The notes beneath the pieces are model-generated. The model was not told the origin of the DNA and made no database searches. It saw only the letters and a program-made list of their open reading frames with translations. Position numbers and translations under genes: made by a program. From the IMG/VR virus record IMGVR_UViG_3300020049_015566: a stretch of DNA of 20,000 nucleotides. The stretch is one strand, 5' to 3'. Source of the stretch: an uncultured virus (IMG/VR IMGVR_UViG_3300020049_015566). Its lineage: Duplodnaviria; Heunggongvirae; Uroviricota; Caudoviricetes. Positions 2,553-12,194 of this stretch are shown in pieces. Each line of letters opens with the position of its first letter. Positions within the stretch are counted from its first letter, which is position 1.

Positions 2553-3925
2553 AGAAGACCCTCCGGGCGTACCAGATCCAGGATCTGGCCCGCATGATTG
2601 CCGAACCCCGGCTGATCCACCGGGGGGAGCCCGCAACGGGCAAGACGGCGCCCTGTTGCGCGATGGCGCAGTATGTGTTCGAGTACGAGGGGGGCGCCAC
2701 CCTCTTCCTGCAACCGAAGTCGATCATCCAGAAGAACCGGCAGGAGATGCTGGACTGCACCAGCTGCTTCGACATTGATGATGTGATCATCTTCGACCCA
2801 CAGAAGATCCACAAGCTCCGCAAGCCACCGACGGTGATCCTCACCACGGCGGATACGCTGGTGCGGCACTGGGCGTCGATCCAGGCGATCACCTCCCGGC
2901 CGATCAAGCTCTGTCTGGCCGATGAATCCCACCTGTACTTCAGTTCCGACAAGGCGAAGCGGACCCAGTTCTGGTATTCGGTGATGGACAAGATCCCTCG
3001 CCTGATCGCCATGACTGGGACGCCGATCCGTGGCCGGATGGATTCCATCTACCCGGCGATCCACATGATCGAACCCCGTTACTATGGTTCCCAGAAGAAT
3101 TTCATCAACTACCACGCGCTGATGAGTTTCGAGGGCAAGATCATCGGCTGGACCAATCATCTCAAGCTCGGCCGGATTCTGAACCAGCATGCTATCAACC
3201 GGACTTTCAAGGAATGCTATGGGGAGGAGAAGAAGCTGCTGCTCCCGGTGACGCTGGAGATGAGTTCCCAGCACCGCAAGTTCTATGACCAGTTCCATGA
3301 AATGGCGGTCCTGGAACTGGACAATGATGACGTCCTGACAGCAACCAACGAGGCGGTGGCCGTCATGCGGGCCCGTCAGATCATTGCCCACCCTGAGAGC
3401 ATCGGCATTGAAGGGTGGAAGGATGAGGTCCTGCCGAAGGATCAGTGGATCCTGGAGGAGGTAGTCCCGAATTATAACTCCGCCCTGATCTTCTGCACGC
3501 TGGTGAAGGAACAGGAACGATTGAAGAACCTCCTGGAGGCCGAGGGGTTACGGGTCGGCCTGATCAACGGCTCTGTCAGCCTCAGCCGGCGGGCGGAGAT
3601 CGACCGGATGTTCCAGGCAGGTGAGCTGGACTTCATCGTGGCCTCCCCGGCAACAGCCGGTGTGGGCTTCAACTGGCAGCGGGCGGAGTGTGTTGTCTTT
3701 GTGAGCTGTGACTATATGGACGACAACATCGTTCAGGCGTATCGTCGAGCAATTCGCGGCGTGCGCGACACTACGTTGCCGATCTATATCCTGCGCTACG
3801 CAAAGACGGTCGAGAAACGCATCCTGCAGATCCTGGAAACGAAGAGTGCCCTGGCGGCCAAGATTGACCCCACCCGCGAGGCCCTGGCCGGTCTCTATAC
3901 TGATGAGGATTTCTATGATGTCTGA
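2549..3925 (+). CDS. Superfamily 2 (SNF2-like) DNA helicase
   Basis: Q-motif LRAYQ, Walker A ATGKT, motif II DESH, motif III MTGTP, motif V AGVGFN, motif VI QAYRRAIR. Confidence 0.92.
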   Translation: MKKTLRAYQIQDLARMIAEPRLIHRGEPATGKTAPCCAMAQYVFEYEGGATLFLQPKSIIQKNRQEMLDCTSCFDIDDVIIFDPQKIHKLRKPPTVILTTADTLVRHWASIQAITSRPIKLCLADESHLYFSSDKAKRTQFWYSVMDKIPRLIAMTGTPIRGRMDSIYPAIHMIEPRYYGSQKNFINYHALMSFEGKIIGWTNHLKLGRILNQHAINRTFKECYGEEKKLLLPVTLEMSSQHRKFYDQFHEMAVLELDNDDVLTATNEAVAVMRARQIIAHPESIGIEGWKDEVLPKDQWILEEVVPNYNSALIFCTLVKEQERLKNLLEAEGLRVGLINGSVSLSRRAEIDRMFQAGELDFIVASPATAGVGFNWQRAECVVFVSCDYMDDNIVQAYRRAIRGVRDTTLPIYILRYAKTVEKRILQILETKSALAAKIDPTREALAGLYTDEDFYDV

Positions 3926-4115
3926 ACGAACCCGTAACCTTGGGAAGGTCCTGTACTACTGGGCTGAAGGCTATAACGTCACCCTCCGGCAGGTCTGGGC
4001 GGGCACCCCTGGCTGGTTTGGGCTGCTTGTGTTCCTGATGGTCATTACGCCCTTCATGCCGATCCTGCTGATCACCAGCCTGGTTTTGGGGGTTCCCGAT
4101 GACGACGCCCCCTGA
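3918..4115 (+). CDS. Small membrane protein (65 aa)
   Basis: ATG 3918 (or 3915) after GAGGA; long hydrophobic stretch GWFGLLVFLMVITPFMPILLITSLVLG. Confidence 0.65.
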   Translation: MSERTRNLGKVLYYWAEGYNVTLRQVWAGTPGWFGLLVFLMVITPFMPILLITSLVLGVPDDDAP

Positions 4116-4380
4116 GCTCTCGGATCTGGAGCATGCCCTCTGGTTCGTGAAGACCTACTGCCCGCACTGGCCGATTGTCGGCCGGGACTGGCAGACGTTG
4201 GACGGAACTCAAGAGGAGCACCGGGAGGAGGCTGAACGCTGCTATGCGTTGCTTGAAAAGGCCGGTTTGATCGAGCTGGCCCTCCGGCCTCCGCGGGCTA
4301 AGCCGTGGCGTTCCGGGAAGCCCAACTTCATCGCCCATAGTCCAGAGGAGAAGAAGGTATGCCTACATTGCCAAAGGTAG
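4099..4380 (+). CDS. Hypothetical protein (93 aa)
   Basis: Fills the gap between neighbours with short overlaps; no recognised motif. Confidence 0.55.
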   Translation: MTTPPELSDLEHALWFVKTYCPHWPIVGRDWQTLDGTQEEHREEAERCYALLEKAGLIELALRPPRAKPWRSGKPNFIAHSPEEKKVCLHCQR

Positions 4381-4799
4381 GGAGGGTCAAGCAGACTCTG
4401 ATTGACCGGGTGCTGAAGGAGAACGAGTTCAGCAGCCTCCAGGAGATGTTTGATTACTACCTGAAGGAAGGGCATGGCCCCTATCAGATTGCGCTCTTCC
4501 TGGGGATCCACCGTCGGACGGTGCATAGCTGGGCGATTGAAGCCGGCGTGGTGCTTCCGAAGCGCTGTGAGAAGAGGGCCTTCCCCAAGAGTCCCATGCC
4601 GCCCCAGGCGCTGGAAGCATCCAAGGAGGTCTGTACGCGGTGGATTGACTGGAGAGGTCAACGTGTCAGCATGCAGGATGCCGCCAAGCGCCTGGGGATC
4701 ACTGGGCAGGCTATGGCGTATCGGCTGGATAACTGGAATAATCTGGAGCGGGCAATGACTGAGAGGCGTGACCCCAACGCCGGAGGGAGAACACGATGA
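4359..4799 (+). CDS. DNA-binding protein with two predicted helix-turn-helix units
   Basis: HTH-like GPYQIALFLGIHRRTVHSWA and SMQDAAKRLGITGQAMAYRL; GAGGAG RBS. Confidence 0.75.
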   Translation: MPTLPKVGRVKQTLIDRVLKENEFSSLQEMFDYYLKEGHGPYQIALFLGIHRRTVHSWAIEAGVVLPKRCEKRAFPKSPMPPQALEASKEVCTRWIDWRGQRVSMQDAAKRLGITGQAMAYRLDNWNNLERAMTERRDPNAGGRTR

Positions 4800-7009: not shown

Positions 7010-7227
7010 AGCTAAGCCTCCGCCGGGGAGCCAACCTGGTGGACACCATCCGCACCCGGTTCCCCAAGACTCCCCCAACGGAGTATTACCACTGGCAAGA
7101 GAGCCTGGATGCCATCTGGGCCCTTTATGATAACGCTGTGATCGACGCACTCCAGGCCAAGAAGGCCAAGGCAGTGCTGAAAAAGCAGATCCAAACCGGA
7201 GTAAAACGCTATGCAAATGCCGAGTAG
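6997..7227 (+). CDS. Hypothetical protein (76 aa, GTG start)
   Basis: GAGGAAG RBS; bridges the exonuclease and polymerase with short overlaps. Confidence 0.6.
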   Translation: MDDLKLSLRRGANLVDTIRTRFPKTPPTEYYHWQESLDAIWALYDNAVIDALQAKKAKAVLKKQIQTGVKRYANAE

Positions 7228-8800
7228 CATCCTGGTCGACCGCCGTAACATCCAGCAGGTCCGTGACCTGATCCTGGAGGACATGCGGTCATCCGGCCTG
7301 AAGGGGCTGGACATCGAGACCACCAACCGCTTCGCGCATGAGGGGATCCTCAAGCTCGAAAGCAAGAAGACGATCTTTGACATCCGCCGCACGGTGATCA
7401 CCGGCTTGTCTGTCTACGCCGACGGCGCCAACCGCTGCTGGTACTTCAACCTCTTCCACGCCGACGAGGCGAACCGCCTGACCTGGCCGGAAGTGCGTGA
7501 ATTCCTTGAGGCCCCTGGCCGCAACCCCTTCTGGGTGATCCACAACGCCCCGTTTGAAATCACGATGTTCGAGAAGTGTGTTGGCTTCAACCTGGGCACC
7601 AACGTCATCTGCAGCCTGCAGCTCTGCGTCACGGCCTACGGCCCGGACACTTACCCCTTGTCGAAGTTCATCACCCCGGACATCGGGGGTATCGCCCGGC
7701 TGATGCCGGCCATCAGCAAGGCCTTCGCCGGATATCAGAAGGGGGATCCGATGACGGCCGACCAGGAGGAGCTCCTGTTCAAGGTCATCGCCAAGGAGAG
7801 TGACGCCGAGCACAGCTACAACGGCTATGTGAAGTCCCTGGCCTACGGCTATGGTCTCAAGCAGGCCGTCAAGAGCTGGTTCGAGTACGAGATGATGCCC
7901 TATGACGCCCTGCTCAAGGCGCACAACGCCACGCGCATGTGCGAGCTCACCGGCGACCAGGTAGTGGCCTATGGCTGCGACGATGCCTTCTGGTGTGTGA
8001 AGCTGTACCACCGGGTGCTGCAATACATGATGGAGACCAACCCGCTGGCGGTGGAGACCTTCTTCACCCAGGAGAACCCAATGGTGCATGAGTATGCCGC
8101 CATCTGGCAGGGGGGTCTGCGGGTCAACAAGGCGAACATCCTCAAGCGGATGGATATGGAGCGCAAGGAGGCCGCCGCCCAGCTCCGCAAGATGAAGGCG
8201 GCGGTGCGTCAGTTGCGCTTCGAGAAGGACCCTCACGAGAAGCTGCTGAAGTACGACGCCAAGTGGTATGAGAAGAACGGTGAGAAGTACCGCACGATGA
8301 TCATGTCGTGGGCCGAGTCCCCTGACAGCGACGACGACTTCAAGCAGGTGATGCAGGTGCGCTCACCGACCTCCTCCGGCTGGGCGGCTGACCGAGGGGT
8401 GGCTGAATCGAAGGGGGTCAACCTCAACCACTACATGCCGATGCGGGTGATGCTGTACGACCTCTGCGGCCTCTCTTTCCAGCTGGCGGACGGCAAGGTG
8501 CAGTCGGACGACGAGGCCCGCAAGACGATGTTCCGTCGCTATGCCAGGAAGTGGGCTGAGAGTCACGGCGTGGAACTGGACAAGGTCTTCGACGTGGAGA
8601 AGCTGAAGGTCCTGTCGGAGCCGCTGCGGGAGGATCCGGTTGTTCAGGTGCTGATGGCCTACATGCAACTGGCGGGTATCGAGCAGCGCATGAAGCTGTA
8701 CCTGACGCCCTACCTGATGATGGTCGACCCGGAAACGGATTGTATGTACCCGGTGCTGTCGAGCCGGTTGGCGACGAGACGGACGAGCTGTCAATTTCCT
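7211..8800 (+). CDS. polA: Family A DNA polymerase, exon 1 (3'-5' exonuclease domain and thumb). Spliced CDS join(7211..8800,9068..9359,9640..10346) = 862 aa
   Basis: ExoI GLDIET, ExoII HNAPFE, ExoIII YGCDDA. Ends ATRRTSCQFP, equivalent to TGRLSS.NP of PolI. Confidence 0.93.
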
Positions 8801-9067
8801 AAATGTTGGGCTTCAGTGGCGTAAGCTGCTGTCGAAAGCTACCTAATTCGGGAGAACACCCTCTGGGGTCAATCACCGAGCTAAGTGTAGGGGGAACCCT
8901 GCTAAATGCGTAACGACCATCCCGCAAGGGAGTACAGCCAAGCGGCTGGAAATGGTAGTCACCCCACCGGGTAAGGCCGAGGGTGTTGATATGGTCTGAT
9001 CTGCATGGTGACATGCAGCTGCCGGAGAGGCGGCCTGGGTCTAGCGTCCCCAGGTGAACATAAATTG
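8801..9067 (+). ncRNA. Group I intron 1 (IA2/td-like, 267 nt, no ORF)
   Basis: 5' exon ends in U8800 and the intron ends in G9067. P1: CCU|AA-aug-UUGGG with U.G pair. P10: GUU 8805-8807 with exon AAC. P2 has a GUAA loop. P3 GCUACC 8838-8843 / GGUAGU 8954-8959. P AAUUCGGGAGAAC, Q AAUCACCGAGC. P7 GACCA 8915-8919 / UGGUC 8992-8996. P7.1, P7.2 and P9 hairpins present. Excision restores FP|NGQQL. Confidence 0.93.
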
Positions 9068-9359
9068 AACGGACAGCAGTTGGCGAAGTACGGGGGGAGC
9101 GCCTATGTGCGGGGCTTCTTCCTGCCAGACCAGGATGACCATGTATTGGTTTCAGCAGACTGGTCGGCCATTGAGCTAGGCATCATCGCGCAGTATTCGC
9201 TCGACCCGGCCTTCATCAAGGCCTATGGTCAGCGGCCACACGATGACCTGCACAGCTGGACAGCCTCGCAGATGATGCGGATGTCGTTGGAGGAGTTCAA
9301 CAAGCTCCCCGACAAGAAGCAGTTACGTACAGATTTGGGGAAGGGTGGGAATTTCGGCT
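9068..9359 (+). CDS. polA: Family A DNA polymerase, exon 2 (motif A and start of motif B)
   Basis: NGQQLAK...VRGFF...VLVSADWSAIEL (motif A)...DDLH...RTDLGKGGNFG (motif B). Confidence 0.93.
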
Positions 9360-9639
9360 TAAAAATCAAGGACTTAGGCCCCTGCAGCCGTGAGGTTGCT
9401 TGAAGAACCAGGTGAACTCAGGGAAACGCCAGAACGGCCAATCCTGAGCCAAGCCGGTAGGGAAACCGGAAGGTGCAACGACTATCCCGCAAGGGAGTAG
9501 GGCTCAAGTGGGCTCGAAGCGCCTGGCCCTGTGATCGAACCTCGGAGGAGGTGGCGCAGGTGATGATATAGTCTGGTCTGCATGGGGACATGCAGCTGCG
9601 AAAGCGTCTAGGGGATAACGCCCCCTAGAGAACACAACG
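9360..9639 (+). ncRNA. Group I intron 2 (IA2/td-like, 280 nt, no ORF)
   Basis: Exon ends in U9359 and the intron ends in G9639. P1 GGCU|UAA pairs with UUAGGCC 9374-9380. P2 GCAGCC-guga-GGUUGC. P3 CCAGG 9408-9412 / CCUGG 9522-9526. P GAACUCAGGGAAAC, Q AAUCCUGAGC, R AACGACUA, S GAUAUAGUCU (P7 GACUA/UAGUC). Excision creates T|AC (Tyr), restores NFGYWYSG and fixes the frame. Confidence 0.93.
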
Positions 9640-10346
9640 ACTGGTACAGTGGAGCTCTCGGCACCGTCGCCAAGGCACGGGGATGGTCCAGCGAGGAGAT
9701 GTGGGAATTCACGGAGATTTACCGTGGGATCTTTGCGGTCGCGGAGGAGTGGCGTCTTGAGACCATCCAGACTGTTCGTCAACAAGGGTATGTGACCTTG
9801 CCTGATGGATTACGGCGGGATCGGTTTGAAGCCACCCCCACCTGGGCTGATGTGATGCGGAACAAGTTCCGGGCGTACAACGTGCCGGGCTTCGTCGAGC
9901 TGATGATCAGCAAGATCCAGAACCGCTCCGGCAACCAGGCGGTGAACGCCATGGTGCAAGGGCTGTGTGCCACGCTGGCGAAGCGGAAGATCCTCAAGCT
10001 GCGGAAGATGATCGCCGACCGTGGTTATCGTGCCCGCTTGTGGCTGCTGGTGCATGACGAACTGGTCTGCTCCGTCCACAAGGACGACGCGATCGACTTC
10101 ATGTACGACCTGTACGAGCTGATGATCGACGGTGAGGGCATCTTCAACGAGATCAAGCTGGACTCCAGCCTGGCCGTGGGGCGCAACTTCCAGCCCTGGG
10201 ATGCCAAGGAGTGCCCACAGGGTCAGATCGAGCTCATGGAGCTCAACAAGGGCCTCCCCTGCCTGCCTGAAGAACGGTATGGGCAACGGGCAACACGGGA
10301 GGAGATTGGGGATGTACTCAAGTACCTGTTTGAGACCCCGGCCTGA
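9640..10346 (+). CDS. polA: Family A DNA polymerase, exon 3 (end of motif B, motif C)
   Basis: WYSGALGTVA..., GYVTLPDGLRR, AVNAMVQG and LVHDEL (motif C). The frame is open upstream of the ORF-track start at 9699. Confidence 0.93.
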
Positions 10347-11150: not shown

Positions 11151-11709
11151 CCACCCCACCAAGCTGGACTGGCCGGATCTCATGGTCGATCTGGAAACGA
11201 CCGGCTTGCAGGCCGACCGGCACGGCATCCTCCAGATCGCTGCTGTACGTTTCGATCTGCTGTCGATGCAGCTTGATGCCACGGACACCTTCCAGGCCTG
11301 CCTGACCATGCCGCCCCACCGCTGCTGGATGGAGAGTACCCGGGAGTGGTGGATCCGGGACAAGTACGACTTATTGGAAAAACTGATGAGCCAGCAGGAA
11401 GAGTGGCGGGAAGTGATGGAACGCTTCGCGGTATGGGTGGGAGGGGCCAAGCCTACCTTCTGGTCGAAGCCTTCGCACTTCGACTTCACCTTCCTGTCAT
11501 CGTACTTTGCGGATGCCGGCGTTGAGAACCCGTTCCACTACCGCAAGGCCAATGACCTGAACAGCTTCCTGCGAGGGATGTACTGGCCGCAGGACCCCCC
11601 CTACAACGACTGGAACGTCTCTACCAGTGGGGATGCCCATGACGCCTTGAATGACATCTTCCACCAGTTGAAGGTGCTGTTCATGAACTATGAGCACAAG
11701 CGAACATAA
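11107..11709 (+). CDS. DEDDh 3'-5' exonuclease (DUF5051/ExoVIII N-terminal-like)
   Basis: DLMVDLETTG, I.QIAAV.FD, T..WW, FDF..L and HDALND motifs. Start may be 11110. Confidence 0.88.
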   Translation: MMTTPTQKSPLPKFNHPTKLDWPDLMVDLETTGLQADRHGILQIAAVRFDLLSMQLDATDTFQACLTMPPHRCWMESTREWWIRDKYDLLEKLMSQQEEWREVMERFAVWVGGAKPTFWSKPSHFDFTFLSSYFADAGVENPFHYRKANDLNSFLRGMYWPQDPPYNDWNVSTSGDAHDALNDIFHQLKVLFMNYEHKRT

Positions 11710-11729
11710 GGAAAACTGATGAAGAAAAG

Positions 11730-11758
11730 AAGCCCGCCTGACCAGCGGGCTTTTTCTT
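11730..11758 (+). terminator. Intrinsic terminator (possibly bidirectional)
   Basis: AAGCCCGC-ctgacca-GCGGGCTT then TTTCTT; A-rich tract upstream. Confidence 0.85.
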
Positions 11759-11766
11759 GGCCGGCT

Positions 11767-11952
11767 ATATCACTTTTCCTGATGGAAGCCAGAAGGGTTG
11801 GCAAAAACGCTGATGAAGCCATATCACTTTTTCTGATGTAAGCCCGAAGGGTTGGCAAAAACGCTGATGAAGTCATATCACTTTTCCTGATGTAAGCCAG
11901 AGTGATTGGCAAAAACGCTGATGAAGTCATATCACTTTTGCTGATGGAAGCC
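11767..11952. repeat. Tandem repeat, 54 bp x ~3.5
   Basis: Units at 11767, 11821, 11875 and a partial unit at 11929. Consensus ATATCACTTTTCCTGATGKAAGCCAGAAGGGTTGGCAAAAACGCTGATGAAGTC. Confidence 0.97.
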
Positions 11953-12194
11953 CCCAGAACCCCAGAAATACTGATTAAAACCGAGGAATCCCCGAGTTTT
12001 GCCTATATCAGTTTTTCTGATGATCCACAGCGGTTTAGCCAAAAAGCATCAGAAAAACTGATGAGCCAAATTGGGGCAGCTTTTTCTATATCAGTTTTTC
12101 TGATGAAGTCGGTCGGTGTATCAGTTCTGCTGATAGATCATGATTTTTTCGACGTTTCGGCCAAAGTACCTCAAACCCATACCCACCAAGGGTT

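Follow-up and report, generated by a model that had tools for sequence, protein, structure and literature searches.

Very probably, the two group IA2 introns that split the polA gene of an uncultured virus (IMG/VR IMGVR_UViG_3300020049_015566; the whole 20,000-nt stretch analyzed is hereafter called the window) were acquired independently and share only core blocks that run through subgroup IA2, with a base-pair swap in helix P7 that is recurrent and with the core of the second intron present at two neighboring sites in polymerase motif B. The original prediction had read the two introns as close relatives, descended from one ancestor retargeted to a second site 292 nt away or kept alike by ongoing gene conversion of core segments.

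Two group I introns in a phage polymerase gene

The window holds a phage replication region with a polA gene of the Seuss/JWF type, interrupted by introns I1 and I2 (Table 1); the best cultured matches of the polymerase are those of Achromobacter phage JWF, Xylophilus phage Lumi and Caulobacter phage Seuss (43-54%). Excision of both introns yields an 862-aa family A polymerase, neither junction shows an insertion or deletion relative to seven intronless homologs, and the junction left by I1 (site 1) is identical to the DNA of the intronless locus L268. Sequencing runs were compared with the window if their word share was ≥0.2. Among them run X1, the only RNA-labelled run (its RNA status is a guess), tiles the window without loss of either intron, and no spliced joint occurs in its contigs.

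Table 1. Features of the polA region, in window coordinates.
Feature	Position	Strand	Description
polA exon 1	7211..8800	+	530 codons, ending ...SCQFP; colinear with intronless homologs
Intron I1	8801..9067	+	267 nt, group IA2, td-like clade, without ORF, P^N site
I1 P1	8798..8810	+	contains U8800.G8808 at the 5' splice site
I1 P3	8838..8959 (8838-8844 / 8953-8959)	+	6/7 paired; sequence unlike I2 P3
I1 P6b hairpin	8886..8902	+	ortholog L267 has an HNH ORF at this position instead
Block 1 in I1	8912..8934	+	J6/7, P7 5' strand (C8918), P7.1, GUA linker
Block 2 in I1	8987..9022	+	J8/7, P7 3' strand (G8993), P9.0 5' strand, P9
polA exon 2	9068..9359	+	292 nt; motif A (ADWSAIE) and first half of motif B
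Site 2a (K-G^G-N-F)	9346..9347	+	empty in window; I2-type intron there in L267, L269; 19/50 protein tails
I2 P1	9356..9380	+	7 bp; exon GGCU with guide GGCC
Intron I2	9360..9639	+	280 nt, group IA2, without ORF, site 2b (N-F-G-T^AC)
Block 1 in I2	9477..9499	+	carries U9483 (P7)
Block 2 in I2	9564..9599	+	carries A9570 (P7)
polA exon 3	9640..10346	+	completes spliced product, 862 aa

Both introns contain the P3-P7 core, the G-binding helix P7 and the P4-P6 domain, and in both P7.1 and P7.2 are joined by G-U-A, a feature described for subgroup IA2 (PMC3428280). I2 scores 66.9 bits against Rfam RF00028 and passes the gathering score of 50; I1 falls just under it (48.2 bits, E 1.1e-9). P3 of I1 includes one U-U, and its P4 has one base bulged out. 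I1 ends in G9067 with a P9.0 of 3 bp, and its P1 loop also offers a 4-bp P10 with exon 2; I2 has U9359.G9377 as its splice-site pair and ends in G9639 with a P9.0 of 2 bp. Both are intact group I ribozymes whose helices covary and whose P1 suits its own exon, which upholds this part of the original view. From this anatomy and knowledge of the family, each intron would be excised from the polA mRNA in the usual two steps, with the 5' site set by P1 and its U.G pair and the 3' site by the terminal omega-G with P9.0 and P10.

Neither I1 nor I2 encodes an endonuclease in the window. The I1 ortholog in L267 encodes an HNH_3 match and a weak NUMOD4 match, and because this ORF stands where the window has the P6b hairpin, I1 is most likely, and most simply, a homing intron that lost its own nuclease gene; it would have arrived by homing with that HNH nuclease, the gene being lost here later. 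Within P6b, window position 8894 is G and is A in G001, L266 and all four runs compared; this is the sole difference between the window and G001 over about 3.8 kb and lies at the N of the GNRA loop (GGAA versus GAAA), so that it is neutral or a base error in the window. P9.2 of I1 differs from that of its L267 ortholog, and the P9.2 stem of I2 (window 9607-9629) is wholly unlike that of L266 (2796-2818), the two cores being identical at 209/217 positions; such peripheral stems seem to be swapped fast between alleles.

Shared blocks and separate origins of I1 and I2

The matches that suggested kinship are as first described: block 1 agrees at 22 of 23 nt (C8918/T9483) and block 2 at 33 of 36 (G8993/A9570, A8999/G9576, T9009/G9586), P1 and P3 differ between the introns, the exon between them is 292 nt long, and one difference in each block covaries, C8918-G8993 and U9483-A9570 being the same pair of P7. 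The remaining two differences in block 2 are also structural: 8999/9576 sits in P9.0, the helix that each intron forms with its own 3' end, and 9009/9586 occupies the N position of the P9 GNRA loop.

Both block matches are far above chance for random DNA, and both blocks are scored as repeat families; among IA2 introns the I1/I2 match is not above background. The exact 23-mer occurs in its C form in 23 other IMG/VR stretches and in its T form in at least 117, in introns whose hosts are capsid, ribonucleotide reductase, RNA polymerase, primase and polA genes (129 flanking frames scanned). The block 2 pattern matched 94 stretches, 51 of them at 33/36 or better to one of the two introns, and 11 reached the original match level in both blocks; the comparison sets were gathered with the blocks as bait and establish the existence of such matches, but not their frequency across IA2 introns at large. 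Even the td intron of Escherichia phage RB3 matches block 2 of I1 at 33/36. Many IA2 introns lie in or beside major capsid protein genes (L003, L008, L019, L177 and others).

When the P7 partner was read without requiring pairing, 23 loci were C-G and 110 U-A, 7 of the 140 had no downstream motif, and the single discordant row proved to be a mis-hit. The C-G state occurs in 16 of 144 rows, and a quick tree built with the P7 columns removed requires 13 changes to account for it, so the pair is a recurrent, structure-neutral switch. The I2 orthologs L269 and L270 carry C-G, and window I2 and L266 carry U-A; the compensatory change is real, but took place inside the I2 lineage.

To place the two introns, cores were aligned on their pairings over 126 columns, with 167 distinct introns extracted, 23 doubtful cores dropped and 144 kept. 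I1 and I2 agree at 93/126 positions, and 40 of the 142 other introns are closer to I1, and 86 closer to I2, than the partner intron is. Inside the blocks the pair agrees at 55/59, equalled or bettered for I1 by only 8 of 142; outside them it agrees at 38/67, below the all-pair median of 63%, and in that part 85 of the 142 others surpass I2 in identity to I1, and 116 of 142 surpass I1 in identity to I2. I1 belongs to a clade of 13 rows (100/98) that also takes in td introns, introns of ATPase genes and the polA P^N introns L006 and L069; its block 1 is identical to that of its relatives L020 and L006, and in the P1-P2 region and at the 3' end it aligns well with L069, which occupies the P^N site in a different phage family. 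The nearest rows of I2 are L008, L019 and L087 (115/126), the first two being capsid-gene introns. All 20 quartets put I1 with its own relatives (11-22 sites versus 0-4), and none of 200 bootstrap trees joins I1 to I2. An AU test rejects the joined pair on the 21 nearest rows (p 3e-6) and on 31 rows with orthologs (p 0.0067), both row sets having been chosen after the identities were seen; it does not reject it on all 144 rows (p 0.124) or on any of four random 30-row subsets (p 0.08-0.54).

That I1 and I2 are sister paralogs, one intron copied to a second polA site 292 nt away, is therefore highly improbable. The identity within the blocks and the AU result on the full row set would allow it, and Twort orf142 provides a precedent, with two highly similar IA2 introns (2 and 3) in tandem in one phage gene (PMC10136302). 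Against it stand the low identity outside the blocks, the different P3, the likeness of the I1 ends to L069, the bootstrap trees and the independent presence and absence of the two introns described below. In Twort the highly similar introns permit skipping of a 23-nt exon (PMC10136302), whereas the window's introns are distant and their 292-nt exon is essential; I1 and I2 are not each other's nearest relatives across the core, as a sister pair of the Twort type is. Equal conservation of the blocks in unrelated IA2 introns together with separate clades, named in advance as the outcome that would contradict close kinship, is what we observe, and neither that kinship nor retargeting across 292 nt is upheld. 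As the blocks and the P7 swap are family-wide, core matches are a poor ground for taking two IA2 introns to be sisters.

Relatives of the gene show that the two introns come and go separately. Four of 55 related polA loci contain introns: both are present in L266 and L267, and L269 and L270 have the I2 type alone. L268 (92% aa identity) and L141 have none. Of the best 120 of 723 protein matches, 113 are full length, three end at site 1 and four near site 2. The protein cluster members P0142 and P0177, which begin in exon 2 and read through motif B, are read from their ends as probable I1-only alleles. The survey of alleles proposed at the outset thus found every state (none, I1 only, I2 only, and both in the window, L266 and L267), and I1 and I2 appear to assort independently.

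Ongoing gene conversion between I1 and I2, which would keep the blocks alike, is very unlikely. The high block identity would fit it, as would the 4 nt after P9 that window I2 has in common with I1 and at which L269 and L270 differ, but the same 4-nt tail occurs in L151 and L162. Identity between the I1 and I2 families is flat at 91-93/126 whether or not the introns reside in the same genome, I2 from hosts without I1 has the C-G pair of I1 while co-resident I2 has U-A, and block 1 of I1 is shared exactly with its own relatives. Co-conversion of the U before site 1 was considered and set aside, as L268, L269 and L270, intronless at that site, already have it.

Recombination between the blocks had also been proposed to delete exon 2. 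Such an event would drop 565 or 577 nt, including the 292-nt exon with motif A, and shift the frame; no clean joint of this kind was found in the four runs. Joints from 8951 to 9559-9564 do occur in all four, and were rejected as deletions because 19-24 foreign letters stand between the ends and their depth is unrelated to that of the phage itself (up to 1670 versus 75-100 in X1), which points to other introns. Exon skipping is known from Twort orf142 and SIOphi terL (PMC10136302, PMC11878797).

One intron core at two sites in motif B

Site 2a lies 13 nt upstream of site 2b (N-F-G-T^AY). I2-type introns occupy 2a in L267 and L269 and 2b in the window, L266 and L270, and at each junction of which both ends are seen their removal restores motif B and the frame. 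Among 50 protein tails read, 19 are of the 2a and 6 of the 2b type, some of the latter possibly being the window's own genome, and the window's own 90% clusters contain 2a, 2b and empty alleles; the two sites are mutually exclusive, and the window's own species uses both. In runs X2 and X3 the contigs carry I1, exon 2 and the I2 core as in the window, with 22 gap positions and 65 other letters across 9596-9641, a pattern that would fit 2a.

L269 (2a) and L270 (2b) are identical at 213/217 core positions, in host genes that agree at 555/852 aa (65%) and 1754/2568 nt; no core column groups introns by site and five group L269 with L270, L269 being the one 2a intron seen whole. Their agreement starts at the guide and stops 6 nt beyond P9; on either side of this segment the two introns differ. 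The 2b introns of L266 and L270 both begin GGAAAA, and a clade of 2b introns is not rejected (AU test, p 0.145).

Guides follow the junction at which they stand. In L269 the guide GUUCCU-GCCC fits the exon GGGU^GGGAAU, with a P10 of -7.5 kcal/mol; P10 is weaker in 2b introns (-3.1 to -4.4), where L270 sets guide GCCC against exon GGGU, and the window and L266 set GGCC against GGCU. The 2a read-through residues V-P, V-S and I-S match the exon hexamers of the same lineage, GGGAAT (L269), GGAAAC (L141) and GGAAAT (L266), the codons being inferred from residues. In the three 2b alleles, a small number, the 2a position never carries the 5' tetramer of the same allele, which would avoid a cryptic splice site.

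We suggest that allelic introns exchange their core by patch recombination, in a segment running from the guide to shortly after P9, and keep their site-specific ends; we give this origin of the 2a/2b pattern about an even chance. Only a patch exchange would be viable, because a single crossover between 2a and 2b alleles would duplicate or delete 13 nt, and core exchange is slightly favored over true retargeting because one patch needs fewer steps than a move followed by replacement of both ends. The retargeting or core conversion first proposed for I1 and I2 thus fails for that pair and apparently holds among I2 alleles 13 nt apart. BLAST against the collected loci found no donor for the 3' domains, and the I2-family patterns had no match in genome_contigs or viral_contigs.

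Alternatively, the I2 ribozyme may truly have moved 13 nt, by reverse splicing into a second GGGU or by homing repair guided by microhomology, and then re-fitted its P1 loop and 3' end, an explanation to which we give a little less than an even chance. Both 5' exons can end in GGGU, L270 at 2b retains the 2a guide GCCC, cores 98% identical stand at different sites, and in fungal rDNA sister introns 6 and 10 nt apart (S1046-S1052, S1506-S1516) have been proposed to result from transposition (PMC1299323). The fungal pairs are old, clade-level events in rRNA, whereas 2a and 2b concern cores 90-98% identical in a protein gene, with both forms present in one phage species. A true move would require relocation, a new 5' loop and a new 3' domain within about 2% core divergence, and the 2b ends could instead be those of an older resident: ORF-less introns of Pseudomonas phage CP-p-PA-22062 (L161, 269 nt) and Klebsiella phage RCIP0099 (L159) already stand at the 2b position and phase, and L161 has P5 and the last 10 nt in common with window I2. 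Their cores, at 95/114 and 98/114, are not among its nearest rows. How group I introns reach new sites is an open question, and the reverse-splicing route is described as being without direct experimental evidence (PMC3984707), which also counts against a move by RNA. Introns occur in polA motif B at ≥5 positions within about 20 nt across phage families (L161, L159, L162, L188, L103, L038).

Assembly of conserved intron blocks into false contigs could in principle mimic the pattern, as the shared blocks are points where contigs do break off and foreign introns accumulate; we consider it most improbable, since 2a tails are found in 19 and 2b tails in 6 of the 50 proteins from several sources, the frame is restored at every junction, each with a P1 of its own, and the 2a guide codons follow the exon codons of each lineage.

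Core exchange, if right, means that trees of intron cores can mislead on insertion history. The possibility that the site changed by 13 nt recently, with both addresses segregating in one phage species and guides re-fitted to each junction, is put forward tentatively; if true, it would offer a population-level snapshot of group I intron transposition, whether through reverse splicing or through illegitimate homing. Until now this step has been deduced chiefly from old rDNA phylogenies, and natural allele pairs would make it open to assay. We found no report in the open-access literature of a phage case of one intron core at two adjacent sites. Under either mechanism the allele set (none, I1, 2a, 2b, both introns) is natural material for studying how specific the guides are, immunity to the nuclease and the route by which the introns move.

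Homing, related introns and neighboring features

I2-lineage introns seen whole lack an ORF, and may have spread with a free-standing HNH gene beside polA. In L269 a free-standing 276-aa ORF with two HNH_3 matches directly follows polA (3807-4637), and X2 has an 866-nt insert at that place; X3 (2a by inference) and L270 have no free-standing HNH. The L269 gene, the X2 insert and a diverged tract around motif B in L268 suggest collaborative homing for the I2 lineage. The F-CphI nuclease and the S-PM2 psbA intron likewise combine an intron lacking an ORF with a free-standing nuclease gene next to the gene that hosts the intron (PMC6083498), but F-CphI belongs to another nuclease family, and the window has no free-standing nuclease.

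The tract in L268, an intronless conspecific, spans about 150 nt (L268:255-410; window about 9246-9359 and 9640-9680) and is strongly diverged; outside it L268 is 93-97% like the window. It could be an imported, nuclease-resistant tract. Window positions 9310-9346 match the distant 2a allele L267 at 29/30 and conspecific L266 at 24/30, and likely represent a co-conversion tract.

Phage polA genes with multiple introns (PMC11878797) and several polA intron sites (PMC3428280) are known. The td intron of RB3 (KM606994; L157) falls in the same 100/98 clade as I1 and agrees at 100/125 core columns, but lies in the thymidylate synthase gene, carries the I-TevI ORF and has U-A in P7 and, in the register used here, a 2-nt J3/4. 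At the codon boundary of I1 stand polA P^N introns of Vibrio phage phi 1 (L006/L155), L069, PhAPEC7, PPWS1 and vB_MZM_4AB-P. L006 and L069 belong to the I1 clade, L006 with the same C-G pair in P7, whereas the introns of PhAPEC7, PPWS1 and 4AB-P belong to another clade; unlike window I1, the P^N-site introns of other phages carry ORFs in the P6 region. The phi 1 polA gene (L155, KP280062) also has two introns, the first of the I1 clade at P^N; its record annotates the gene only as split CDSs. The P^N site is presumably that of SPO1, Bastille and Pf-WMP3.

Elsewhere in the window, a long, perfect-looking hairpin lies in an AT-rich intergenic stretch at 12007-12062, with a weak mir-3167 score on both strands, and a minus-strand ORF at 11688-11930 contains three repeats of about 18 codons; the region around the two is a possible origin region. 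A 146-aa ORF at 4359-4799 has two HTH-type matches.
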